Assembly (NCBI GenBank): GCA_965263075.1
Contig: CBDHGI010000006.1
Coordinates: forward strand, 402,929 to 466,928
Direction: 5' to 3'
DNA length: 64,000 nt
Origin: Chloroflexota bacterium
Lineage (GTDB): Bacteria; Chloroflexota; UBA11872
Shown here: positions 4,287-62,252 of the stretch, one piece after another
Numbering within the stretch: position 1 is the stretch's first letter
How the letters are laid out: every line of letters begins with the position of its first letter
Translations under genes and position numbers: made by a program
Notes under the pieces: generated by a model
Database searches by the model: none
What the model saw: only the letters and a program-made list of their open reading frames with translations
What the model was told of the DNA's origin: nothing

Positions 4287-5015
4287 TTAGCGGCCTTTCC
4301 AGTCCAGGTCGATGTCGGGCAGCATGGGCAGTTCCTCCATGAAGCGGTAGAAGCGCCCGGTCGGACCGCCATCCGGCAGCGACGCCAGCCAGACGGCCGT
4401 GGGCACGGCCTCGGACGGCGGCACGGTAGAGGTTGGGTTCATGTCGGTCCGAACCGATCCCGGGCTCATGGCGTTGACCAGCACGTTGGCGGCCTGAACC
4501 TCCTTGGACATCGCAATGGTGAGCGCGTTAACCGCGGCCTTGGACGCGGCGTAAGCCGATTCACCGGGGTTGCACATGATGGCGGAGCCGGAGGACACGT
4601 TGACGATGCGCCCGTAACCCGCCTCGATCATGTGCGGCAGAGCGGCGTGGCAGCAGGCGAAAAGGCCGATCAGGTTGACTGCCTGCACGCCGGCGAACGC
4701 TTCGGGCGAAACCTCGGCCACCGGCCCGCGAGCAGTGCTCACCCCGGCGTTGTTGCAGAGCACGTCCAACCGGCCATGACGGGCGACTACCCCGTCGATC
4801 ACCTGGCGCACCGCGTTCGCGTCGCTCACGTCCAGCGTCACGACTTCGGACGTGCCGGGCAGTTGCTCAATCTCGGCGGCAACCGCGGCCAGTCGTTCTT
4901 TGTCGCGCGCCGCCAGGACCACGTGCGCTCCGGCGCGCGCGAATCCCAGCGCGATCTCGCGCCCGATCCCCCGGCTGGCACCGGTGACCAGAGTCGTTCG
5001 ATTCGTGAGGTCCAT
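4287..5015 (-). CDS. SDR family oxidoreductase (short-chain dehydrogenase/reductase)
   Basis: TGASRGIGREIA Rossmann motif, NNAG, and the S...YxxxK catalytic motif (SAYAASKAA). 242 aa. Confidence 0.85.
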   Translation of the reverse strand: MDLTNRTTLVTGASRGIGREIALGFARAGAHVVLAARDKERLAAVAAEIEQLPGTSEVVTLDVSDANAVRQVIDGVVARHGRLDVLCNNAGVSTARGPVAEVSPEAFAGVQAVNLIGLFACCHAALPHMIEAGYGRIVNVSSGSAIMCNPGESAYAASKAAVNALTIAMSKEVQAANVLVNAMSPGSVRTDMNPTSTVPPSEAVPTAVWLASLPDGGPTGRFYRFMEELPMLPDIDLDWKGR

Positions 5016-21432: not shown

Positions 21433-21506
21433 GCCCCCGTAGCTCAGAGGATCAGAGCGACGGCCTTCTAAGCCGTGGGTCGCAGGTTCGAGTCCTGCCG
21501 GGGGCG
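21433..21506 (+). tRNA. tRNA-Arg (anticodon TCT)
   Basis: Cloverleaf folded by hand: acceptor GCCCCCG/CGGGGGC, D-arm GCTC..GAGC, anticodon stem ACGGC/GCCGT with loop CTTCTAA (U33, anticodon TCT), T-arm GCAGG TTCGAGT CCTGC, discriminator G. CCA is not encoded. Confidence 0.85.
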
Positions 21507-36309: not shown

Positions 36310-39300
36310 CTAGCGTTGGCTCTGGCCGTTATTCCTGATCTGGGTGCCGAATTCCTCCCAACTCGCCTGTCCATCTCCATCAAAGTCCACAGTGAGAGAC
36401 GGGTACTGACTGGCCGAGCCAAAGTCCCAAACATCCGTCAGTTCAGCGGCCATTGGATACGCAAAGATCGGAATCCCAGGTCCGACTGAGTGGCGCCACG
36501 GCGCATATATCCCTGCGTAATCCGTGGGCTCCTGCAACTCCGAGCCGGTCTTGCCGACGATTTGCACATTTCCGTCCCACCACCGCCTGGGAAAATGGGC
36601 AGCATTGGTTGGTTCATTCCTGCCGAACCCAACTGACTGACCCGTTGCCTGCGTGTCCCATAAACTGTTTATCACAGCGCTCAGATTCACTCCAACCAGG
36701 CCTCCCACCAGGTCGTCTCCTACGACATAGGCCGTGGTATAGCTGTCGATGATCACAGCGGGCCTCTGGCTCCCCCCGTTCCAACCCACGAGTCCGCCAA
36801 CATGCCGCTGGCCGGAGACGCTACCCATGGAATAGCTGACAAGGACGTCGTACCCATTGTTTCCGACCAGTCCACCCACGGTTTCGCCACCAGACACTTC
36901 GGTGTTCGCGTAGCTTGAATCTATCGTGTCGAAGTTGTATCCAACCAGTCCGCCAACTGACTCCCTACCCGTCACCTGTCCGGTCGCGTAGCTGGCGCGC
37001 ACCTTGCCTCCATTCCCGCCGACTAGGCCGCCAACAACCTCGTCTCCAGCGACGATTCCGGAAGCGTATGTTGCATGGAGCGTTCCATACAGCAGTCCGA
37101 TGAGGCCTCCCACATAGTCTGTGCCTTTGACATCCACCTCTGCGTAACTTGATTCTATTTGCCATCCCTGAATAGCATTCTCCGAGTCCTGGTTGTACCC
37201 CACAAGTCCGCCAACGTGGGTAGTTCCTGATACCAGGCCGGTGGCATAGCTATGACTGATGATGCCCCGATTCTCTCCGACCAAAGAGCCTACCGACGCC
37301 AGGCCAGTGACGAGCACATCATTGAGGCCAATACCGCGAATGACCGCGGAAGAACCTGTGAACCCGAAGAGTCCGGCTGCCCCGGCATCTTCCAGAAACG
37401 TCGTTCTGTTGACGAAGAGACTCCGAATGGTATGTCCATTGCCTTCAAACGTGGCAGAAAACGAAGTCTCGCTTGATCCAACCCCTATGGGTAACCAACC
37501 ACTGCCCCTTGTCCACAGAGGGTTTACCACGCCGTACGAATAGCTTTCGAGATCTTGAAAATCAAGCGGCCGGGTCAATTCGTAACCATTGCACCCGCTG
37601 CAAGGATTGGTTTCCGCAGCGGGAAAAGCCGACGCGTAAGCCTTGTCCCCGGCGCCATCGGGGATCCCATTGCCATCTAAATCGAAGCGGACGGCATTCA
37701 GCTGCTCTAGATTCGAGACTTCGATCAGTCCGTCCGAGTCAGTATCGAGACTCTGGCTAGCTGGCACGGTCGCTACCGGGGTCGTGACGGGCGCAGGTGT
37801 ATCCGGGGGCGCGGCGGACGGGGCCGTTGACGACGGTTCCCGCCCTTGCTCACCGAATTCCTGCCAGGTTGCAACGCCGTCGCCATCGAATTCGGCTTTG
37901 AGCACCGGGTACTGTTGGCTGGTACCAAAGTCCCAAAAGTCACCGGCTCCCGTTTCCAAGGTATAGTCACCATCAGCATTGTCCAGATCGATGTTCCAGG
38001 CACTGAAGACTCCAGTGAATCCGGCGGGCGATTGAAGCTCGGCCGTGGTCTTGCCAGAATTCGTCGGGACATTGCCATCGCCAGTGCCGTTGGACTGACC
38101 GGATACGTCGATGTCCCAAAAACTGAGGATTAGCCGCCCAGGATTTCGTCCGGTGAGTCCGCCGACGGAAGTCTCGCCGCTCACGAACGCGGCGGCGTAG
38201 CTCGCAATTACCGTTCCCGGGCCGCCTTCGTCCCATCGGTCAACCCACGGCATCGAATTGTCACCGACGAGACCTCCAACGACCACTGATCCCGACACGC
38301 TTCCGGTGGCAAAGCTGGCGATGATAGACCCTGAATTGGCTCCGGCGATACCTCCAGCAGCTTCGTGTCCCGACACATCCCCGGTGGCGTAACTGGCCGT
38401 GACGTTGCTCGGATCGTTACCCGCGGCGTTGACTCCGACGAGACCGCCTACCCTGGAGCGTCCAGCCACGGGCCCCTTTGCATACGTGAAGGCGACATGA
38501 CCTTCTTCGTTACGGCCGACCAGGCCACCAACCTCAGAGCCGCCGGTCACGTTCGCGGTGGCAAAGCTGGCGGTAACTGACGCCTTCTGGCCACGCCAAC
38601 CCTCGGTGTTCCATCCGACCAGTCCTCCTATCCGTGACTCGCCGGACGTTTCGGTTGCGGAGTGGCTAAACCTGATGAGGCGACGGTTGGTCCCAACCAA
38701 TCCACCCACATTGTTCTTGCCGCTTACCCTGCCGGTGGTGTATGAATTGAAAACGTCACCCTCGTTCGTAGCGGCCAAACCACCCACATTGTTCCCGCCA
38801 GTGATGTCTACGTTTATGACGCCAATATTTCGAATCACGCTGTCCTCTTGCACATGCGCGAAGAGTCCCGATGCCTCATTGGTACGATCGTCGAGATCCG
38901 TGACCTTGACGTAGAGGTTACTAATGACATGCTCGTTGCCATCGAATGTGGCTGGAGAGCGAAAATAGCCAAGGTCTTCAGGCTGCCAGCCTATGCCGCT
39001 CCGCCAATCCGCGTTCACGACTCCGGTCGCGTAGCTACTCGGATCTGCAAAGTCCAGCGAGCGCGTGAGCTCATATCCAAAGCAAAAGTCGCAGACCTCT
39101 TCATTGTCCTTGATGGGAAACGCTGCGTAAAACGGCTTTCGCACCGCAGGATAGTCGGGGCGTCCGTTGCCGGCCCTATCCATACCCATTGCAGCTAACT
39201 GCTCCAAATTGGAGACTTCAATCAGCCCATCGGCATCCTTGTCGTAGTTACCGTTGTCGCGTTGGATCCCAGCGATTCGACCCTGAGGGCCAAACTCCTC

Positions 39301-40908
39301 CCACGTAGCAGTCCCATCTCGGTTGGCGTCGACTTTCAGTGCCGGATACTGATTTAGTCGACCAAAGTCCCAGACATCGTCAACGCCGGTGTCGCGATTG
39401 TCATCCGCGTCTGCGTTGTCGACGTCCAGCTGCCAGTTCTCGAATGGGCCGCTGTAGTCGGTGGTACCCTGAAGCACAGAGGTTGGAACGCTGCGACTGC
39501 TGGACGGATTACCCTCACCAACATCGTTCAATTGACCCGAGACGTGAGTATCCCAGACGCTATCCAGGACAACCACTGTCTCCCAATCACTATACGGTAC
39601 GTTTCTTCCTATCAGAGCACCGACAATGCCGTTGCTTTCGACGTGACCGACACCGAAGGTGGCTCGCACGGTACCAGCCTCGTTTGATCCGATAATACCG
39701 CCGACAATCGTACCGCCCGAGACGTTGCCAAGGGCGTACGCTGCGATTATGTCACCAATGTTCATCCCGACCAGACCGCCGGCAGAGTCAATCCTATCCC
39801 GCACCGATCCCGCGGCGTAGCTTACCGTTACGACGCCGCTGTTGGAACCGATCAGGCCACCGATGTCCTCTGCTCCGACGATCCGTCCGGTCGCGTAGCT
39901 CTTAGAAATGTTCCCATCATTCGCACCAACCAAGCCGCCAGCCTGCCAGATTCCCAGCACATTTCCGCTAGCGTAGCTCTCGACAATGTCCCCGTGATTG
40001 CCCCCTATCAGTCCCCCACAGCGACTATCGGCGCAGGCTACACTGCCTGTAGCGTAGCTGCTTGCGACGCTACCCCGGCTGAAGCCGACCAGAGCTCCAA
40101 TTTCGTACTCTCCGGAAGCGCCGCCGTTCGCATGACTGCCCAGGATCGAACCATAGTTGGTTCCGACAAGACTGCCAATCTGGGACCAGCCGAGTACCCG
40201 TGCCGACGACCGACTATCTTGAATGACACCGTGGTTCTCTCCGACGAGACCTCCAATCTGGTCGATTCCGTCGACATTTCCGGAGGCGTGGCTGCGCTCA
40301 ATCATCCCCCGGCTGTAGCCGGCCAGGGCTCCGACCAATCTGAAGCCTGTGACGTCCGCCTTCAGGTCATCTACTCGCGCGACAACTGCCGTGCTATCCA
40401 AATAGCCAAAGAGTCCTACTGGTCGCGGATCAACGCTCTCTTCAAGCCGAAGAATGTAGAGGTTGGAGACGACGTGCTCGTTGCCCTCGAACGTTGCCGC
40501 AAAGGGACTGACTTCCGTGCCGATAGGCGTCCATCCCTCACCGGTTCTCCACGCTCTGTTCGTCGCGCTTGACGCGTAGCTATCCGGGTCGGAGAAATCC
40601 AAATCTCTGGCCAGTTCATATCCCTGGCACGTGGGTGTGCATGCAACCCGTAACGAGGTCTGCGAAAAGGCCCTGTAAAAAGCTTCCTCGGCACGAGACC
40701 CGTCGGGCTTTCCGTCGCCATTGAGATCATTTCGAATGGCGTCGAACTGTTCGAGATTATTGATCTCAATGAGACCGTCGTCATCCAGATCGTGATCGCC
40801 GCTGACCGCTCGGACAGTGGTGGCAGCGCTGCAAGCCAGAACAGCGAAGAGCATGACGAGCCATAGCAAGTTTGACACCAGCGGAGTGCTGGCCCGGCTC
40901 GGAATCAT
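36310..40908 (-). CDS. Giant secreted repeat protein (about 1532 aa mature-length ORF). It has a signal peptide and three tandem ~470-aa units, each with a DxDxDGLIE(V/I)xNLEQ calcium-loop-like motif, a GYELTR/ATFEGNxH block, 8-10 GLUG-like (GGLVGxNxGxI..SYATGxVSG) beta-helix repeats and a DFWDFG..QYP.LK.DFDGDG..W.EFG terminal block. Function unknown; candidate adhesin or surface-layer component.
   Basis: ORF track 36310..41139. The first 77 codons are Arg-rich without homology, and the ATG at 40906-40908 gives the classic signal peptide MIPSRASTPLVSNLLWLVMLFAVLACSA. The internal triplication is visible in the protein (DHDLDDDGLIEINNLEQ / DKDADGLIEVSNLEQ / DTDSDGLIEVSNLEQ). Confidence 0.85.
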   Translation of the reverse strand: MIPSRASTPLVSNLLWLVMLFAVLACSAATTVRAVSGDHDLDDDGLIEINNLEQFDAIRNDLNGDGKPDGSRAEEAFYRAFSQTSLRVACTPTCQGYELARDLDFSDPDSYASSATNRAWRTGEGWTPIGTEVSPFAATFEGNEHVVSNLYILRLEESVDPRPVGLFGYLDSTAVVARVDDLKADVTGFRLVGALAGYSRGMIERSHASGNVDGIDQIGGLVGENHGVIQDSRSSARVLGWSQIGSLVGTNYGSILGSHANGGASGEYEIGALVGFSRGSVASSYATGSVACADSRCGGLIGGNHGDIVESYASGNVLGIWQAGGLVGANDGNISKSYATGRIVGAEDIGGLIGSNSGVVTVSYAAGSVRDRIDSAGGLVGMNIGDIIAAYALGNVSGGTIVGGIIGSNEAGTVRATFGVGHVESNGIVGALIGRNVPYSDWETVVVLDSVWDTHVSGQLNDVGEGNPSSSRSVPTSVLQGTTDYSGPFENWQLDVDNADADDNRDTGVDDVWDFGRLNQYPALKVDANRDGTATWEEFGPQGRIAGIQRDNGNYDKDADGLIEVSNLEQLAAMGMDRAGNGRPDYPAVRKPFYAAFPIKDNEEVCDFCFGYELTRSLDFADPSSYATGVVNADWRSGIGWQPEDLGYFRSPATFDGNEHVISNLYVKVTDLDDRTNEASGLFAHVQEDSVIRNIGVINVDITGGNNVGGLAATNEGDVFNSYTTGRVSGKNNVGGLVGTNRRLIRFSHSATETSGESRIGGLVGWNTEGWRGQKASVTASFATANVTGGSEVGGLVGRNEEGHVAFTYAKGPVAGRSRVGGLVGVNAAGNDPSNVTASYATGDVSGHEAAGGIAGANSGSIIASFATGSVSGSVVVGGLVGDNSMPWVDRWDEGGPGTVIASYAAAFVSGETSVGGLTGRNPGRLILSFWDIDVSGQSNGTGDGNVPTNSGKTTAELQSPAGFTGVFSAWNIDLDNADGDYTLETGAGDFWDFGTSQQYPVLKAEFDGDGVATWQEFGEQGREPSSTAPSAAPPDTPAPVTTPVATVPASQSLDTDSDGLIEVSNLEQLNAVRFDLDGNGIPDGAGDKAYASAFPAAETNPCSGCNGYELTRPLDFQDLESYSYGVVNPLWTRGSGWLPIGVGSSETSFSATFEGNGHTIRSLFVNRTTFLEDAGAAGLFGFTGSSAVIRGIGLNDVLVTGLASVGSLVGENRGIISHSYATGLVSGTTHVGGLVGYNQDSENAIQGWQIESSYAEVDVKGTDYVGGLIGLLYGTLHATYASGIVAGDEVVGGLVGGNGGKVRASYATGQVTGRESVGGLVGYNFDTIDSSYANTEVSGGETVGGLVGNNGYDVLVSYSMGSVSGQRHVGGLVGWNGGSQRPAVIIDSYTTAYVVGDDLVGGLVGVNLSAVINSLWDTQATGQSVGFGRNEPTNAAHFPRRWWDGNVQIVGKTGSELQEPTDYAGIYAPWRHSVGPGIPIFAYPMAAELTDVWDFGSASQYPSLTVDFDGDGQASWEEFGTQIRNNGQSQR

Positions 40909-41610
40909 GGCCGCCCAACTGTCAGGGTTCAAATTGGGGTATCCCGGGTGACCACGCAAGGGCCGATTCCCTGGTCCAAGAACTGTGGCGGCGTCCCGCC
41001 AGGCGCGTGGGCCCGCCGTGGCCAGTTGTGACTTTCGAGCCGTGGCGCCGGCAGCTCGCCGGCCGGGGAAATTCGTCCAGGCAGCCGCACGCGTAGAGGT
41101 ACGCATGGGGTGGCTCTGCCGGTTGCCACGGCTCGACACGCCTGAAATCTGCGTCGAGGCTCAACACGCCAGCGGCCTCGCTTCGCCCGGGCTAGCATGA
41201 GCCCAATGTGCCAAGTGTGCGTGGCTTGATGCAGCACCTGCGTCACGTTTCCCTCTGGCGCGCCAGAGACTACGAAGAGACGTACATGGTATTCGGCGAG
41301 AACGTAGAGTTTTGCATACAGCCATTCCGATATGGAGTGCTGGGCGACACAGCTAGCTGCTCGTGCCCGGGCAACTGTTGGTCCCAGTAGACGGCGGCGG
41401 CGCGCGCCAGGCTTTGTTTGAACGATTAGATATCTACTCGGCGGTCCGTCTCTCGGTATCGAGCGCGCCCGGAGTCGTATTGGTCGGGAAGGCTGTCTGG
41501 CAAGAATTGCCACTACTGTTCTCGCCATCCAAGCTGTGTCCCCTCTCACCGCGACGGCACGCGCAGGCTTGGAGACCAACGGCGATTACGGCCGAGGGTC
41601 GAATGGGGCA

Positions 41611-56819: not shown

Positions 56820-57920
56820 CTACGAGACCTCCGCGGTCTCGGCCATTTCCACTTCCAGCTTGGCGATCTCGTCGGTCAGCACGGGCAGCATGTCGGCTTC
56901 GTCCACGGTCTGCAGAATCTTGCCGTGGCGAAAGATCACCGCGCGGCCCTTGCCGCCGGCGATGCCCAGGTCGGCGTCCATTGCTTCGCCCGGTCCATTA
57001 ACCACACAGCCCATTACGGCGACCTTCATGGGCTGCTTGATGCCCTTCATCACGTCTTCGACGGCGTCGGCGAGACCGTAGAGATCAATCTCGCAGCGAC
57101 CGCAGGACGGACACGAAACCATCGTGGGACCGACAGTCTTGAGACCCAGGACCTTGAGAATCTCGTTCGCGACCCTGACTTCCTCGACTGGATCCGTCGT
57201 GAGCGAGACGCGCATCGTGTCGCCGTAGCCGTCCCAAAGCAGGCTGCCCAGCCCCACCGAGGAGCGAATGATCCCGGTGCTTGGCGGTCCGGCCTCGGTG
57301 ATGCCGATGTGGAACGGATACATCACCAACTGCGCCAGTTCCTTGTAGGCGTTGATGGTGACGTCCACCTCGAAGGACTTCATGGAGATCTTGATCTGGT
57401 CGAAGTTCATGTCCTCCAGGATCTTCACGTGCTCGACGGCGTCCTCGACCATGAGTTCGACGAGCGCGTCGCCTTCGGGTCGACCGTCGAACTTCTTGGA
57501 CCAGGCTTCCTGGATCGATCCAGAGTTCACGCCGATGCGGATCGGGATGTCGCGTTCCTTGCAGGCGCGGACGACCGCTTCCACATTCTCGCGTCCACCG
57601 ATGTTGCCGGGGTTGATGCGGAGGCAGTCGAATTCGGCTTCAGCCGCCATGAGGGCAAGTCGGTAATCGAAGTGGATGTCGGCAACCAGCGGCGCGTCGG
57701 TGCGAGCGCGGATGTCCTTCAGGGCCGCCCCGGCGTACTTGTCGGGCACCGCCAGGCGGACGATGTCGCAGCCGTGTTCCATCAGCCGCTCGATCTGCGC
57801 CACGGTGGCATCGACATCGCGCGTATCGGTGATGGTCATCGACTGGACCGCGACCGGTGCGCCCCCGCCAATCGGTACGTCCCGCACCTTGATTTGGTAG
57901 GACCCGCGTCGCTTGATCAT
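56820..57920 (-). CDS. ispG: 4-hydroxy-3-methylbut-2-en-1-yl diphosphate synthase (flavodoxin)
   Basis: IGGGAPVAVQSMT ... and the CPSCGRC [4Fe-4S] ligand block. The ATG at 57920 (MIKRRGSYQIKVR) gives 366 aa. The ORF track has a 93-codon non-homologous extension. Confidence 0.9.
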   Translation of the reverse strand: MIKRRGSYQIKVRDVPIGGGAPVAVQSMTITDTRDVDATVAQIERLMEHGCDIVRLAVPDKYAGAALKDIRARTDAPLVADIHFDYRLALMAAEAEFDCLRINPGNIGGRENVEAVVRACKERDIPIRIGVNSGSIQEAWSKKFDGRPEGDALVELMVEDAVEHVKILEDMNFDQIKISMKSFEVDVTINAYKELAQLVMYPFHIGITEAGPPSTGIIRSSVGLGSLLWDGYGDTMRVSLTTDPVEEVRVANEILKVLGLKTVGPTMVSCPSCGRCEIDLYGLADAVEDVMKGIKQPMKVAVMGCVVNGPGEAMDADLGIAGGKGRAVIFRHGKILQTVDEADMLPVLTDEIAKLEVEMAETAEVS

Positions 57921-58328
57921 GGGCTCACGCTCCGCGTCGTGGCGTGGGGTCGTTCTTCGAAGCGTACCCCGGAATCCGCGCCCAGACCAGAACGCGCCGG
58001 GCGGCCTGCGAAAGGCGTCGGCGCGGATCCAGGCCCTGCAGCCGACCGGAAGAGTATTGGAAGCTAGCGAGGGGTACGAGCGCACGGCTTCCTGGCCAAG
58101 ACCGATGCGCTGGACGCCCAGCTCCTGGACCGCTTCGTAAGCGATGTGCCATCCCGAAAGCCATCTGTCCAGCCCGGCGGTGGATCGCCTGCAGGGCATA
58201 AGCCTGCGGCGTCAACTGGTGGGGCTGCGGGTGGCCGATCCGAACCGGCCCCACCACCACACGCGCCCGACGCCAGCCGCGTCTACCGCGGCTGGCGTCG
58301 GAACTGGACGGGGCGCGCTTGGCCAGCG

Positions 58329-58988
58329 CTACATCATCATGTCCATCATCGACATCTTGTTGATCTCGTCTTCCGAGATCCCGATGCCGTAGAGCACGCC
58401 GGCGTCGGTTCCCGCCAGGAACTCCTTCTCGGTACCTCGACCGATCACGTCAGCCGCGATGCGGTACGGCAGGCCCATAGTCATGTCCATGTCCTGGTCC
58501 ATGTCCATGTCCTGATCCATGTCCATGTCCTGATCCATGTCCATGTCCTGATCCATGTCCATGTCCTGATCCATGTCCATGTCCTGGTCCATGTCCGAAT
58601 CCGTGTCCATGTCCGAGTCCATGTCCATGTCCATGTCCGAATCCATGCCCATGCCCATGCCCATGTCCATGTCCATCGAGGCAGCTATACGCGCTTTGGC
58701 CACGGCGACGATGCGGTGGTAGTAGTGGAGATCCTTGTTGTGTTCTTCGATCCACTTAGCCTCGGCATCGGCGCCATAAACGGCGCGATAGGCGGACTGC
58801 ACATCAGCCGACTGGTCTTCAAGCCGCTGGCCGTCTGTGGCGGCCGGATGCATATCCGCCAGTGCCGGAGCCAGTGTTGTGAGGGCCAATGCACTCACGA
58901 GGATCAGAAGCATCAGCACACGCAATGGTGCGGGCAGAGAGATTGAACGAAGCACGGGAACGTGCCTTTCGTTAGAGTGACCCGCCAT
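58329..58988 (-). CDS. Exported Met/Asp-rich repeat protein. It has a signal peptide, an ~80-aa N-domain, an (Asp-Met)-rich tract MDMDMGMGMGMDSDMDMDMDSDMDTDSDMDQDMDMDQDMDMDQDMDMDQDMDMDQDMDM, and a C-terminal MSMMDMMM. Candidate Cu(I)/Ag(I) ligand or methionine oxidant sink.
   Basis: Minus-strand reading uses GC-preferred codons (GAC, CAG, ATG) across the repeat. The plus-strand reading is (HVHVLI)n, encoded only by CAT-His. Signal peptide MAGHSNERHVPVLRSISLPAPLRVLMLLILVSALALTTLAPALA. The start is uncertain: ATG at 58988, or the internal ATG of MLLILV. Confidence 0.65.
   Translation of the reverse strand: MAGHSNERHVPVLRSISLPAPLRVLMLLILVSALALTTLAPALADMHPAATDGQRLEDQSADVQSAYRAVYGADAEAKWIEEHNKDLHYYHRIVAVAKARIAASMDMDMGMGMGMDSDMDMDMDSDMDTDSDMDQDMDMDQDMDMDQDMDMDQDMDMDQDMDMDQDMDMTMGLPYRIAADVIGRGTEKEFLAGTDAGVLYGIGISEDEINKMSMMDMMM
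58478..58678. repeat. 18-nt tandem DNA repeat (catgtccatgtcctgatc, about 5 perfect plus degenerate flanking copies) encoding the DQDMDM repeats
   Basis: Read directly from lines 58441-58680. Confidence 0.9.
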
Positions 58989-59341
58989 CGTGACGGGCGA
59001 AGTCTGCCGACAGTCTTCTACGGATCCGTATGATCCGTCAAATTCGCATGGTGGACGGTAGACAACTCCGGTGTCCGTGCCGCCCGGCCTTTCGACAGCC
59101 TGAGGGATGACAACTGGCCTTGTGCGGCACCGGTGCCTGACACGACTCCACCCGGTTGCCGAGGACCGCGAAACCATGTTGACCGGCCTCATGACCAGGG
59201 AGCCTTACGGGATTGTTAGGCGCTGGGGCGGGGGCGGGAGCTACCCGGTTCCGTTTACCTCGGGCATGGGGGTGGGGCGGACAATGGATTGCCGCTCGCC
59301 GATTGCGCGGGGACAAGCTTCGCAGGAAGGACGGAGGGATT

Positions 59342-59473
59342 ATGCGAAAGTCCAATTTGGACGAGCGCGGGCACGATCACGGCGGCATGGTCGATCTCAG
59401 CCGTCCATCCAGTAGTCCCGAATCTCGATCTGGACGCGGGCTGTGGGGGCGCCGCATGCGCTTGCCGGTGTAA
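59342..59473 (+). CDS. Hypothetical 44-aa peptide (MRKSNLDERGHDHGGMVDLSRPSSSPESRSGRGLWGRRMRLPV) with a strong ribosome-binding site
   Basis: GGAGGG 3 nt upstream of the ATG at 59342. Lies in the divergent region between the Met/Asp-rich gene and the molybdoenzyme gene. Not in the ORF track as such (it is embedded in the 59213..59473 ORF). Confidence 0.35.
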   Translation: MRKSNLDERGHDHGGMVDLSRPSSSPESRSGRGLWGRRMRLPV

Positions 59474-59801
59474 ACGCAGGCTTGCGGTCCGTCCATTTGC
59501 TGGCGGCCACCAGTCACGCTGCGCTCCGCGAGCGCTGGGATGGCGCGCCGCGCCGACCGTGGGATCGCTTCCACAAATTGGCCCGAGCTGATCGAACACG
59601 CCATAGAATGGCGTGCGGATGTTGAGAGGTCGGTTGCCTGTGTTTTCGCAGGCTGATGCCGTGCATTGACCGGGCGTTGGGATACGGAGAGGATCCTGCC
59701 CGCAACAAGCTGAGCATCGACGACATGCGGCGGACTTGGCACCCGGTCCGGCCACATGCGCCTCTGAATATATGCGAGCACTGTGCGCCTAGGAGGAACG
59801 G

Positions 59802-61892
59802 ATGGCTGACGAAAGCGACGGGCGGCTGGTCCCAAATTTGAACTCCCTGGCACGAGGCGGTCTGGCAGGGCTCTTGTCCGGGCTGCTGACTGTGGGTGTG
59901 AGCGAACTGTACGCGGGAATCTTCGGTGGTTTGCCGTCGCTCCTCGTCTCCATGAGCGGCCGGATCGTCGACCTGAGTCCGCGGGCCATGGAAGAGTTCG
60001 CTATTAGCGTATTCGGCACCAGCGACAAGCTTGCCCTCGTCATCTTTCTTGTGGTGCTCAGCGGAATATTCGGCGCCACCCTCGGCGTCGTGGCACTGCG
60101 GTCTCGACCGGCGGCGGTGGCGGGATTTGCGGCATTCGGAATCCTGGCAGGTCTGGCGAACGCAGTCGACGCCCAATCAACGCCGGCCCATGCGGCGGCC
60201 GCGGCTGCAGTTTCGGTGGCGGCGGCGGTGGCGGCGCTCTTGTGGCTCATCCGCATGACCCGGGAGCCGACGCGTGCCACTGAGGCGGCGTCGGCCATCC
60301 AGATGCAGCGACAGCGACGGCTCTTTCTTGGCACAGCCACGCTAGTTGCCGCGACCTCAGTCGTTACCGGTGTCTTAGGACGCAATTTGATCGAGCGCGC
60401 CAAGGTGGGCGTCGCCAATCGCGAGGATGTGGTGCTGCCTGCCGTACGCAGCCGCGCGGCGGTGACGCTCCCGACGCCGGCGGCCAGCACCGCCGAGACG
60501 CTCGCGCCTCCGGCACCGCCGACGGTCGCGGCGATCCCGACGCCCAGCTCCATAGCGCCCCCCACGCCCGCGGCGACCCCGTCGCCCGTCACGACAGCGT
60601 CTCCCACGCCCGTGACCGTGGCCAGCGCCGCCGAGACGGCCACGCCCACGGCACCTCCGACGGTCGTGGCGACCCACTCTCCCACGCCCGAGTCGACGCC
60701 GGAGCCCACGCCCGAGCCCACGCCGGAATCGACGCCGGAATCGACGCCGGAGCCCACACCCCAGCCAACGCCCGTGACCGTGGCCAGCGCCGCCGAGACG
60801 GCCGCGCCTACGGCACCTCCGACGGTCGCGGCGACACCGCCACCCACGCCCGAGCCGACGCCGGAGCCCACGCCCGAGCCCACGCCTGAGCCCACGCCCG
60901 AGCCGACGCCCGAGCCCACGCCTGAGCTGACGCCCGAGCCGACGCCGGAGCCGACGCCGGAGCCAGCCCGGCCGCTGACGACGACGACAGTTGGCGTGGA
61001 CGGGATGCCGCCGCTCGTCACGCCCAACAACGACTTCTACCGCATTGACACCGCGTTCTCGATTCCACGCGTGGACGTCAATGACTGGCGGCTCAACATC
61101 ACGGGCCTGGTGGAGCGTCCCTACAGCATTTCCTTCGCCGAGCTGCTCGGGCTCTCGGTCTTTGAGGAATTCATAACGCTGTGCTGCGTCTCCAACGAAG
61201 TGGGCGGAGAACTGATCGGCAATGCCACGTGGCAGGGGGTGCCGATATGGCACCTGGTTAATCATGCCGGGGTGAAGAGTGAAGCCACCCAAATCGTTGG
61301 ACGGTCCGTTGACGGCTTTACGGTCGGGTTTCCGCGCGATGTGGCGTTCGATGGACGTCCGGCGCTGGTCGCCGTGGGCATGAACGGCGAGCCGCTACCG
61401 TTCGAGCACGGCTTTCCGGCGCGCATGATTGTGTCAGGCCTCTATGGCTATGTGTCCGCCACGAAGTGGCTGCAGGAAATTGAACTCACAACCTGGGAAG
61501 GGTTCAACGGCTACTGGATCCCGCGAGGGTGGTCCAAGCAAGGTCCCGTCAAGACGCAATCCCGGATCGACGTTCCCAGGCCCTCATCGACGGGTATCAA
61601 GCCTGGCTTGCAGGCCATTGCCGGTGTGGCGTGGGCGCAGAACCGCGGCATCAGCAATGTGGAGGTGCAGATCGACGGCGGCGACTGGAATGAAGCAAGG
61701 CTCGCCTTGCCGATCAGCCAGCACACCTGGGTGCAGTGGCTGTCGGAGTGGGAGGCCACCCCGGGCCCGCACGTTGCCAGGGTGCGCGCGACCGACGCCA
61801 ACGGCGAGCTGCAAGCCGAGGGTCCCAGGCCACCAGCGCCGAACGGCGCCGAGGGCTGGCATCAAATCAACTTCCAGGTCGCTGACCAGTGA
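59802..61892 (+). CDS. Sulfite-oxidase-family molybdopterin oxidoreductase with an N-terminal ~150-aa 4-TM domain, an internal Tat-like motif (QRRLFLGTATLVAATSVV), a Pro/Thr/Glu-rich (PTPE)n linker, a Mo-binding domain and a C-terminal Ig-like dimerisation-type domain
   Basis: AGGAGG 6 nt upstream of the ATG at 59802. Mo-domain blocks PLVTPNNDFYRID, W.L.I.GLVERP.SISFAEL and CVSNEVGG. An internal in-frame ATG at 60255 gives MTREPTRATEAASAIQMQRQRRLFLG, which looks like a stand-alone Tat signal. Confidence 0.75.
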   Translation: MADESDGRLVPNLNSLARGGLAGLLSGLLTVGVSELYAGIFGGLPSLLVSMSGRIVDLSPRAMEEFAISVFGTSDKLALVIFLVVLSGIFGATLGVVALRSRPAAVAGFAAFGILAGLANAVDAQSTPAHAAAAAAVSVAAAVAALLWLIRMTREPTRATEAASAIQMQRQRRLFLGTATLVAATSVVTGVLGRNLIERAKVGVANREDVVLPAVRSRAAVTLPTPAASTAETLAPPAPPTVAAIPTPSSIAPPTPAATPSPVTTASPTPVTVASAAETATPTAPPTVVATHSPTPESTPEPTPEPTPESTPESTPEPTPQPTPVTVASAAETAAPTAPPTVAATPPPTPEPTPEPTPEPTPEPTPEPTPEPTPELTPEPTPEPTPEPARPLTTTTVGVDGMPPLVTPNNDFYRIDTAFSIPRVDVNDWRLNITGLVERPYSISFAELLGLSVFEEFITLCCVSNEVGGELIGNATWQGVPIWHLVNHAGVKSEATQIVGRSVDGFTVGFPRDVAFDGRPALVAVGMNGEPLPFEHGFPARMIVSGLYGYVSATKWLQEIELTTWEGFNGYWIPRGWSKQGPVKTQSRIDVPRPSSTGIKPGLQAIAGVAWAQNRGISNVEVQIDGGDWNEARLALPISQHTWVQWLSEWEATPGPHVARVRATDANGELQAEGPRPPAPNGAEGWHQINFQVADQ
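60590..60962. repeat. Nested coding tandem repeats: 2 x ~190-nt unit (PVTVASAAETA.PTAPPTV.AT) each followed by a 12-nt (ccc acg ccc gag = PTPE) array, about 20 copies in total
   Basis: Read directly, for example 60841-60960 acgcccgagccgacgccggagcccacgcccgagcccacgcctgagcccacgcccgagccgacg... Confidence 0.85.
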
Positions 61893-62252
61893 GCGCCGCC
61901 GTGCGAAACCACGTTGGCGGCGGCGCTCCGCACGGCTCTGACGTAAATGGACGGCGCCTCCTCGGCACGTAAGACCACGCGGCGCCCTCGAGCGCGAGGG
62001 TGAGCCTTGGTCAACGCGCGCGAAGCGTCGGAACGCCGGCGGAAACCAGGGCGCGGCGCACTTGGTTGGGCAGGCGATGGGGCGGCAGTGAGTCGTGGAC
62101 AGTTGAGCGTGGGATCCGGGTGTTGGGCGGAGGGATGGGGATCGGAGGTGGCCGGTTCGGGCATGGGGGCGGTGGAGGGCAGCAGATGGATTCCCGCTTC
62201 CCGCCTGCGCGGGGACAGGCTTGGCGGAAAGACGGGATCGGGGCGGAGGTGC

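Follow-up and report, generated by a model that had tools for sequence, protein, structure and literature searches.

In Azospira suillum and other Proteobacteria, the yedYZ-mrpX genes encode MrpX, a periplasmic peptide with a signal peptide, 20% Met and 44% charged residues that is sacrificially oxidised by hypochlorite and for which regeneration by the molybdoenzyme YedY (also named MsrP) has been proposed (PMC4436054). In E. coli, the copper chaperone CusF is co-regulated with MsrP, which repairs its Met ligands when they are oxidised under copper stress (PMC9302797). A third described group, the polytopic molybdenum cofactor (MoCo) proteins of the Sco3746 family, is reported from actinobacteria and chloroflexi; these proteins are inserted by Sec and Tat, have five transmembrane (TM) segments with a twin arginine before the last, and carry TM histidines proposed to bind haem b, two haems in all (PMC5449189). 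Here we describe a gene with tandemly repeated Met and Asp codons in a 64,000-nucleotide (nt) stretch of a Chloroflexota genome (assembly GCA_965263075.1, contig CBDHGI010000006.1, positions 402,929 to 466,928), which is called the window below. The gene lies on the minus strand, very probably encodes a secreted protein with a disordered Met-rich loop, and stands divergently beside a gene for a membrane-anchored molybdoenzyme of the sulfite-oxidase fold, with which its product is, on balance, likely to be functionally linked.

Like MrpX, the predicted protein is small, secreted, rich in Met and in charged residues, and encoded beside an extracytoplasmic molybdoenzyme of the sulfite-oxidase fold, and in both cases composition, not sequence, appears to be conserved. 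Its predicted mature form (about 175 residues) has 17.7% Met, 22.3% Asp, 33% charged residues, no Cys and four His; the Met and charged fractions fall below those of MrpX, being lowered by a folded domain. The likeness is drawn from the published description of MrpX, and no MrpX family was among the Pfam and NCBIfam matches. Unlike MrpX, the protein has a conserved, folded helical domain and carries its Met tract as a tandem-repeat loop; the two genes are divergent and not in an operon, although an actinobacterial analogue described below is co-directional. The enzyme also differs from the partner of MrpX in being SorA-like and membrane-tethered, with no MsrQ-type haem partner, and the hosts are Chloroflexota in place of Proteobacteria.

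The repeat can be read on both strands, and the gene and the competing frame have the following parts, with the basis of each in brackets.

58329..58955, minus strand: Met/Asp-repeat coding sequence, 208 codons plus stop, start GTG 58955 (codon scoring, substitutions, homologues, start column)
58857..58955, minus strand: predicted Sec signal peptide, residues 1-33, VLRSISLPAPLR / VLMLLILVSALALTTLAP / ALA (A-x-A rule, homologue conservation)
58848..58856, minus strand: D-M-H at the predicted mature N-terminus, an X-X-His pattern of the amino-terminal Cu(II)- and Ni(II)-binding (ATCUN) type (depends on the predicted cleavage)
58677..58856, minus strand: N-terminal half of the folded domain, residues 34-93, DGQxLxxQ....Q.......G..A...W...HN plus a long helix (51-sequence alignment)
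58476..58676, minus strand: Met/Asp-rich tract, residues 94-160, 67 residues in six-residue units (Tandem Repeats Finder, composition, AlphaFold2 confidence of about 50)
58498..58586, minus strand: perfect 18-nt tandem run, CAG GAC ATG GAC ATG GAT = QDMDMD, 4.94 copies (exact repeat)
58356..58475, minus strand: C-terminal half of the folded domain, residues 161-200, GLPYRIAADVIGRGTEKEFLAGTDAGVLYGIGISEDEINK (strong conservation, AlphaFold2 confidence 93-96)
58332..58355, minus strand: Met-rich C-terminal tail MSMMDMMM, residues 201-208 (Met-rich tail in all orthologues)
58146..58946, plus strand: open reading frame (ORF) of 266 codons with (HVHVLI)n repeats, antisense shadow (codon scoring, 4/57 silent codons)

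The minus strand almost certainly holds the gene. Using codon tables from 27 long ORFs of the window, picked by a G+C content that is highest at third, then first, then second codon positions, we found that minus frame 0 outscored all five alternative-frame models by codon log-likelihood in the repeat and in both of its flanks, N- and C-terminal. In every segment, the plus frame with the same codon boundaries scored negatively against an 'antisense of a gene' model. In ungapped conserved flank blocks aligned between the window gene and four orthologues (L001-L004), variable columns numbered 17, 14 and 48 at minus codon positions 1, 2 and 3, and 30 of the 57 variable codons were silent on the minus strand versus 4 of 57 on the plus strand. 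Among about 5.8 billion proteins searched, 25 proved to be true homologues, every one in the minus reading and with strongly conserved N- and C-terminal parts. Because codon scoring, homologues and substitutions agree, we consider the (HV)n ORF an antisense shadow. An earlier reading of this DNA from its letters alone (the sequence-only reading) had preferred the minus strand, had proposed that both frames be scored, and had argued that the plus frame would need the disfavoured codon CAT for every His; the scoring bears out this preference, and in the 27 reference ORFs His is encoded by CAC in 79% of cases and by CAT in 21%. The 266-codon plus ORF that it had pointed out, with HVHVLI repeats, is present as it said.

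The array itself was reported by Tandem Repeats Finder at 58482..58674 with period 18 (CATGTCCATGTCCTGATC), 10.7 copies, 86% matches and a score of 254, and at 58482..58676 it was also read with period 6. Its longest perfect period-18 run covers 89 nt. Both the 'five perfect 18-nt copies' of the sequence-only reading and its proposal of a recent tandem expansion are therefore well matched by the DNA. On the minus strand the array reads ...SMDMDMGMGMGMDSDMDMDMDSDMDTDSDM(DQDMDM)x6 TM..., in units QDMDMD, SDMDMD and MGMGMD, and the tract is built from the codons ATG (24), GAC (23), GAT (6), CAG (6), GGC (3), TCG (3), ACG (1) and ACT (1). The tract is 35.8% Met and 43.3% Asp, so that the earlier estimate of about 45% Met was too high; Met makes up 1.9% of codons in the long reference ORFs of the window. 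M-x-M is present in each six-residue unit, His and Cys are both absent, and Lys appears in some units of relatives (MKMGDD, KDKDMG).

Around the tract, the predicted protein has a regular plan. A Sec-type signal peptide had been proposed and is well supported as a prediction, since its n-, h- and c-regions, ending in A-L-A, are conserved in all full-length homologues. The residues after the predicted A-L-A cleavage are D-M-H-P; the predicted mature tripeptide is DMH, GMH, DSH or DAH in all 18 species-level orthologues, and of the 48 wider-family members with a DGQ anchor in the 51-sequence alignment, 35 have His as the third residue after A-x-A. Across the 51 sequences G61, A64, W68 and H72 are invariant, and D41, G42, Q43, L45, Q48, Q53 and N73 are nearly so. 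A first AlphaFold2 model from 19 sequences was poor (predicted local distance difference test score, pLDDT, of 59), and we used the model from 51 sequences instead, which gave pLDDT 93-98 for residues 41-95 and 93-96 for residues 161-200, all helical, and about 50 for loop residues 101-160. On this model, 60 N-terminal and 40 C-terminal residues form a small all-helical domain, which the tract most plausibly interrupts as a strongly acidic, disordered loop. Pfam and NCBIfam searches with the protein gave only low-complexity noise far below cut-offs (LED_rpt, and the SD repeats of Sdr/Clf adhesins), and a PDB sequence search gave only low-complexity matches such as NELF-E.

Comparison of relatives showed that the loop changes length readily while remaining rich in Met. 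Among relatives with flanks at least 93% identical, the tract measured 14, 18, 26, 50, 50 and 68 residues, as expected from the earlier suggestion that copy number would differ between strains, and across 18 species-level Chloroflexota genomes it ranged from 32 to 84 residues. Against L011, the neighbouring DNA of the window is 92-94% identical, but the 3' half of the gene is only 84% identical and has indels. The 18 orthologues carry lineage-specific expansions of different units (MDMDQD, MDMDSD, MSMGDD, MGMGDD, MKMGDD and MSMDDD), all of which keep M-x-M; Met stays at 32-40% of the loop across lineages, while D, G, S, K, Q and T replace one another at the remaining positions. Most lineages also have an extra Met-rich (MMMM) insert after EHN, for example ELEMMMMPSVSDNM, and all orthologues have a Met-rich C-terminal tail, such as MDDMMMDDMM or NDMDMM. 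The independent unit expansions may point to selection on Met and not on sequence. Because the 18-nt unit keeps the frame, replication slippage would alter the length of the loop without destroying the protein. The locus thus resembles contingency-type repeat genes for surface proteins in having an in-frame 18-nt unit in near-perfect copies whose number differs among close relatives, and differs from them in that no on/off switching follows, as the unit preserves the frame.

Frameshifts inside the repeat were seen in seven of the 25 database homologues (P0002, P0011-P0014, P0023 and P0025), which read TWTWIRTW or GHGHG there. Such entries could be assembly errors or real alleles alike: either the repeat is evidently hard to assemble or frameshifted alleles exist. 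The GHGHG and TWTW frames were considered as the gene and rejected, as they occur only in these frameshifted entries. In L026, a run of N lies inside the repeat.

The folded part belongs to a wider family: when 1.84 billion cluster representatives were searched with the family profile, 201 of them matched at E<=1e-3, the distant ones mostly through the DGQ module. The whole module, N- and C-terminal halves with no long tract between them, forms the N-terminus of Chloroflexota proteins of 450-550 residues with He_PIG ('putative Ig') repeats, and in the P0029-P0034 subfamily, which lacks the tract, the two halves are joined by 'ARGADAELANRIA'. The DGQ module of about 40 residues is also found singly or in tandem in many unannotated proteins (P0047, P0053, P0050 and P0040), with five or six copies in P0047, and looks like an undescribed extracellular repeat domain. 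Relatives have Met tracts of other kinds: a C-terminal (MMDDD)n in P0061, PMGMGMGMG in P0038 and MPEDMPEDMP in P0045. Source names in the wider family were only 'hypothetical protein' or 'putative Ig domain-containing protein'. The distant paralogues P0061, P0042, P0029 and P0040 were not beside a molybdoenzyme, or lay on contigs too short to tell.

We then compared the genes around the Met/Asp-repeat gene. The following neighbours enter the argument.

59802..61892, plus strand: membrane-anchored molybdoenzyme of the sulfite-oxidase fold, 696 residues, divergent from the Met/Asp-repeat gene (Pfam PF00174, 5.8e-39)
L044:6894-7148, L046:6922-7128 and L048:6926-7162: Met-rich lipoprotein ORFs of 68-84 codons, unrelated to the Met/Asp-repeat gene, beside orthologous enzyme genes of Actinomycetota

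In the window and in L002-L004, the gene lies between ispG and the divergent enzyme gene of about 700 codons, in a wider block of rpsB-tsf-pyrH-frr-uppS-cdsA-dxr-rseP, with mutSL also among the surroundings read. A scan with the catalytic domain of the enzyme, taking one genome per species, kept 80 loci out of 178 tblastn-confirmed stretches: 27 from close Chloroflexota relatives (enzyme 85-99% identical) and 53 more distant (52-64%). The divergent Met-rich gene was present in 20 of the 22 close Chloroflexota relatives with enough upstream sequence. In L001 and L033 the pair is retained amid a different ispG region and different outer flanks, which argues that the two genes stay together when their surroundings change. 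No member of the DGQ family was found near the 53 distant enzyme loci, which come from Acidimicrobiia, many other Actinomycetota and other Chloroflexota.

At three of the distant loci, all from Actinomycetota, a Met-rich gene of a different kind accompanies the enzyme gene. Its product is the lipoprotein listed above, from a family of 62-84 residues with a signal of the form …AACGGDDDD… and repeats of the type (TEMMTDT)n or (TE[HQK]MMTETT)n, for example (TEHMMTETT)n. The ORF starts 22-25 nt past the enzyme gene or overlaps its end, and the enzymes of these loci are 59-62% identical to that of the window. Five database homologues of the lipoprotein (P0176-P0180) vary in repeat number, and their repeat His can be replaced by Q or K. 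On five further contigs (L091-L095), the lipoprotein gene directly follows a 566-residue enzyme gene, so that the adjacency holds on all eight contigs, from Acidimicrobiia and other Actinomycetota, the three from the scan and the five retrieved. A divergent OmpR-type regulator lies upstream on the three contigs that reach far enough, with a histidine kinase next to it on the two longest; typing of this two-component system gave only a generic OmpR and a BaeS/MtrB-like kinase, below all NCBIfam cut-offs including those for heavy-metal systems and HprR. Downstream of the actinobacterial lipoprotein gene is an aldehyde dehydrogenase gene, which is uninformative.

The enzyme has several hydrophobic TM helices in its N-terminal third, the motif RRLFL before the last of them, a Pro/Thr-rich linker of about 175 residues, and then Oxidored_molyb and Ig-like domains. 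We counted its TM helices by eye and, by inspection of the sequences, found RRxFL before the last hydrophobic segment in the window enzyme and 12 orthologues. This layout is that of the Sco3746 family, with N-terminal TM helices, a twin arginine before the last of them and a C-terminal MoCo domain outside the membrane; it matches the MoCo proteins inserted by both Sec and Tat, which places the enzyme and the Met-rich protein alike outside the cytoplasm. Unlike Sco3746, the enzyme and the orthologues examined lack the TM histidines for haem and have the long tether inserted. The catalytic domain is nearer to SorA and SoxC than to MsrP: NCBIfam scores were 109 bits for SoxC, 109 for SorA and 77 for SorT, against cut-offs of 420, 600 and 570 for SorA, SoxC and SorT, respectively, and E-values were about 1e-31 for SoxC and SorA and 7e-9 for MsrP, all far below the cut-offs. 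The best PDB match is SorA (2ca3), and in that alignment SorA residues R55, H57 and Y236 face I, T and W in the enzyme. We take these three SorA residues to be catalytic from the SorA mutant structures 2ca3, 2ca4 and 2c9x, and with all three replaced it seems unlikely that the enzyme is a genuine sulfite dehydrogenase.

One possible explanation for these observations is that the Met-rich protein forms a working pair, on the outer side of the membrane, with the Tat-exported and membrane-tethered molybdoenzyme encoded divergently from it. At the cell surface, hypohalous acids or peroxide would convert the exposed Met residues of the protein to methionine sulfoxide, which would spare other envelope proteins, and the molybdoenzyme would then reduce the oxidised Met back, in parallel to MrpX and MsrP of Proteobacteria. 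We rank such a sacrificial methionine redox sink, serviced by the molybdoenzyme, first among the functions considered, because the MsrP-MrpX pair is the one documented link between this enzyme fold and a Met-rich secreted protein; by analogy it is a tentative choice, and the function is inferred from composition and gene neighbourhood. A broader form of this idea, which we regard as somewhat doubtful, is that Chloroflexota and Actinomycetota have their own version of MsrP/MrpX, a haem-less tethered reductase for which two unrelated Met-rich families were recruited independently as substrates. In that case the enzyme, inserted by Sec and Tat, would reduce methionine sulfoxide outside the cytoplasm or carry out a related thioether-redox reaction, and the slippage-prone repeats would tune the number of Met residues per molecule between strains.

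Several observations weigh against a sink serviced by this enzyme. Of the 53 distant enzyme loci, only 3 (L044, L046 and L048) have a Met-rich neighbour; most orthologous enzymes lack one, and the enzyme therefore clearly has a role without a Met-rich protein. Even in Chloroflexota there is a presence/absence polymorphism: L013 and L024 keep the enzyme without the Met-rich gene, with ispG abutting the enzyme gene (~4350-4790), and the proteins encoded nearby are 81-97% identical to their counterparts in the window. The Chloroflexota examples are also fairly close kin, as the identity of their enzymes indicates, so that the synteny is partly inheritance. The enzyme shares the fold family PF00174 with MsrP (YedY), but its score of 35 bits against an MsrP cut-off of 207, compared with 109 bits for SorA and SoxC, places it outside the MsrP family itself. 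Orthologues with a clean N-terminus have 0 to 2 non-conserved His in their N-terminal parts and none that is shared, and neighbour clustering of the 53 distant orthologues found no recurrent redox-partner gene; without haem-binding TM His or a conserved redox partner, the electron source of a long-tethered reductase is left unexplained. Finally, paralogues of the folded module head He_PIG surface proteins that are not beside the enzyme, and the module itself may thus be only an anchor.

The main rival, which we hold to be unlikely, is that the protein binds or buffers copper, with M-x-M (and M-x-x-x-M) for Cu(I) or Ag(I) and with Asp and the ATCUN-type D-M-H for Cu(II). Copper would be sequestered or handed over at the surface, and the adjacency of the enzyme would be incidental or would serve the repair of Met ligands. 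The loop is indeed a regular M-x-M array, and every orthologue, like most of the wider-family members counted above, has X-X-His right after the predicted cleavage site, but the same pattern is found in paralogues that are not rich in Met, and the cleavage site is itself a prediction. Two described systems offer parallels: an ATCUN motif and an MxMxxM motif for Cu(I) occur together in the ectodomain of human Ctr1 (PMC9117721), and in CueO a Met-rich domain recruits Cu(I) and the Cu5 substrate site consists of two Met and two Asp (PMC11494321). With the Ctr1 N-terminus and the CueO insert the tract shares M-x-M spacing, Asp beside Met, a predicted NH2-X-X-His, an extracytoplasmic position and predicted disorder; it differs from both in having no homology to them, no His within the tract and no copper genes nearby, and in an array that is longer and far more regular. 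Compared with the Met-rich copper class as a whole (Ctr1, CueO, PcoE/SilE and CopM), the protein has the clustered MxM motifs and lacks the family relationship and the gene context. The repair of CusF by MsrP would make sense of a copper-binding Met protein beside a methionine-sulfoxide reductase. Against copper, however, no copper-homeostasis gene occurred in any context read, no copper-protein family was matched in Pfam or NCBIfam, the tract has neither His nor Cys and some of its units in relatives contain Lys, and the actinobacterial repeat His is replaceable by Q or K. Copper binding alone would also leave the recurrent pairing with a molybdoenzyme unexplained. The 'metal-ligand-like' character that the sequence-only reading saw in the peptides may hold, as one of two live hypotheses, and the redox-sink and the Cu(I)/Cu(II)-binding roles could be compatible.

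Less probable still is a neutral linker driven by slippage, in which the helical module is what matters, as an envelope anchor or interaction domain also present in He_PIG surface proteins, and the loop is a spacer grown from an ancestral GAC-ATG hexamer. This would fit a low-confidence loop between the two halves of a confidently predicted domain, a loop length anywhere from 14 to 84 residues, the loop-less paralogues P0029-P0034, the absence of the whole gene from L013 and L024, and the fact that one ancestral M-x-M-x-D-D unit could yield all unit types. It fits poorly with the placement of Met, which is enriched at three sites of the protein (the insert after EHN, the loop and the C-terminal tail), in non-homologous form in the paralogues with (MMDDD)n, PMGMGMGMG and MPEDMPEDMP, and again in an unrelated lipoprotein beside the orthologous enzyme; in the loop, moreover, Met holds within its narrow range while all else varies, far from the 1.9% background of the window.

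That the real gene is instead the plus-strand (His-Val)n ORF is scarcely credible: it is open over its full length and its product would be rich in His, but its codon scores, its few silent substitutions, the rare CAT at every His and the frame of all recovered homologues count against it, as do U-G pairs in a leader hairpin that are possible only on the minus-sense transcript. Two further roles for the Met-rich protein were ruled out, that of a molybdate-binding protein, because the strong acidity of the tract does not suit an anion such as molybdate, and that of a haem or cytochrome partner, because the protein has no CxxCH and no Cys at all.

The boundaries of the gene and its putative regulatory signals are the following.

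58965..58970, minus strand: Shine-Dalgarno-like GAAAGG, 9 nt before the GTG (25-sequence leader alignment)
58980..58998, minus strand: 5'-leader hairpin GCCCGTCA-CGA-TGGCGGGT, containing ATG 58988 (conserved in 26 loci)
59015..59041, minus strand: promoter-like boxes TTGACG (59036..59041) and TAGAAG (59015..59020) (leader conservation)
58267..58301, minus strand: perfect 15-bp G+C-rich hairpin, 27 nt past the stop, terminator-like without a U tract (fold)

Translation most likely starts at GTG 58955; the start first proposed, ATG 58988, probably lies 33 nt too far upstream. The alignment position of the GTG is occupied by ATG, GTG or TTG in 26 related loci, where it is followed by [IL]R[ST].S.P..LR and then a hydrophobic core ending in A-L-A; ATG 58988 lies inside the conserved leader hairpin and is not kept as ATG in other species. 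Of the six GAAAGG columns, four are invariant and the remaining two are at least 90% conserved in the 25-sequence leader alignment. The hairpin core (58981..58997) occurs once in the window, and its pattern gave 0.8 hits in shuffles of the window, both strands counted. Its stem retains 7-8 bp in the 26 loci, and stem position 6 is C-G, U-G or U-A; since the U-G pairs form only on the minus-sense transcript, they are a further indication of the transcribed strand. Upstream, TTGAC is invariant in the 26 leaders and is accompanied by TAGAAG or TAGAAT in most. These boxes may be promoter-like, with a spacing of 14-15 nt that is below the sigma-70 consensus, and a sigma-70 and terminator scan found nothing relevant on the minus strand. 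The downstream hairpin separates the gene from ispG (56820..57920, minus strand), ahead of a spacer of about 400 nt. With promoter-like boxes and a leader hairpin of its own and a hairpin downstream, the gene looks like a separate transcription unit.

Rfam searches of 58000..60000 at E<=1 gave only spurious matches on the terminator-like hairpin, with no Moco or other riboswitch, and over the whole window at the gathering score the single match was a tRNA (21433-21506, plus strand). At a different locus, a TTGAC box, the hairpin and a Shine-Dalgarno-like sequence, there GAGAGG, also precede the gene for the He_PIG paralogue P0029 (L006:377-627 and L007:238-488, against 58962-59224 in the window), which suggests common regulation or a duplication that took the promoter along.

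The enzyme gene and its surroundings have repeats and conserved elements of their own. The Pro/Thr/Glu-rich linker is encoded by tandem repeats, (PEPT)n and a duplicated VTVASAAETA.PTAPPTV block, where local G+C reaches 77-78% (window 60400-61000); it is likely to be length-variable too, and casts shadow ORFs on the minus strand at 59789..61030 and 60375..61292. A leader of about 370 nt (59435..59801) is conserved and retained even in genomes without the Met-rich gene, with no Rfam match. About 195 nt upstream of the enzyme start, the palindrome ACGCCATAGAATGGCGT (59598-59614), which contains a TAGAAT box and is near-invariant in 25 loci, may be a promoter or operator. On either side of the enzyme gene lies a copy of a dispersed repeat of about 75 nt (59260-59334 and 62157-62235; 79% identical, same orientation), also found in L011 and L033, which could be an element of the repetitive extragenic palindrome or miniature inverted-repeat transposable type, or a regulatory one. 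The intergenic DNA there is about 400 nt longer in the window, L011 and L012 than in L001 and L002. Elsewhere in the window, a 1617-codon ORF (36310-41160, minus strand) has a flat codon-position G+C of 0.61/0.51/0.63, compared with about 0.70/0.50/0.78 as is typical of the window.

The enzyme is found across Actinomycetota (Streptomyces, Arthrobacter, Actinoplanes and Acidimicrobiia) and Chloroflexota, and we found no published function for it; its two unrelated Met-rich secreted neighbours give a testable hypothesis for its substrate, namely protein-bound Met or methionine sulfoxide. Our literature search returned no account of a Met-rich protein paired with sulfite-oxidase-like enzymes of Chloroflexota or Actinobacteria, and the only extracytoplasmic Met-repair system that it returned was MsrPQ of Gram-negative bacteria, with no counterpart described in Actinomycetota or Chloroflexota. 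The family of the Met-rich protein and its DGQ module of about 40 residues have no Pfam or NCBIfam family and no match among solved structures, yet comprise 201 cluster representatives. Should the redox-sink model fail, the finding would reduce to a less remarkable one, a hypervariable Met/Asp-repeat surface protein. In either case, the locus is a natural instance of an in-frame repeat that changes the dose of one reactive residue between close relatives. If the redox-sink model is true, the pair would supply the extracytoplasmic Met-repair counterpart for Actinomycetota and Chloroflexota, and the MrpX/MsrP idea would have been built from different parts in different phyla.

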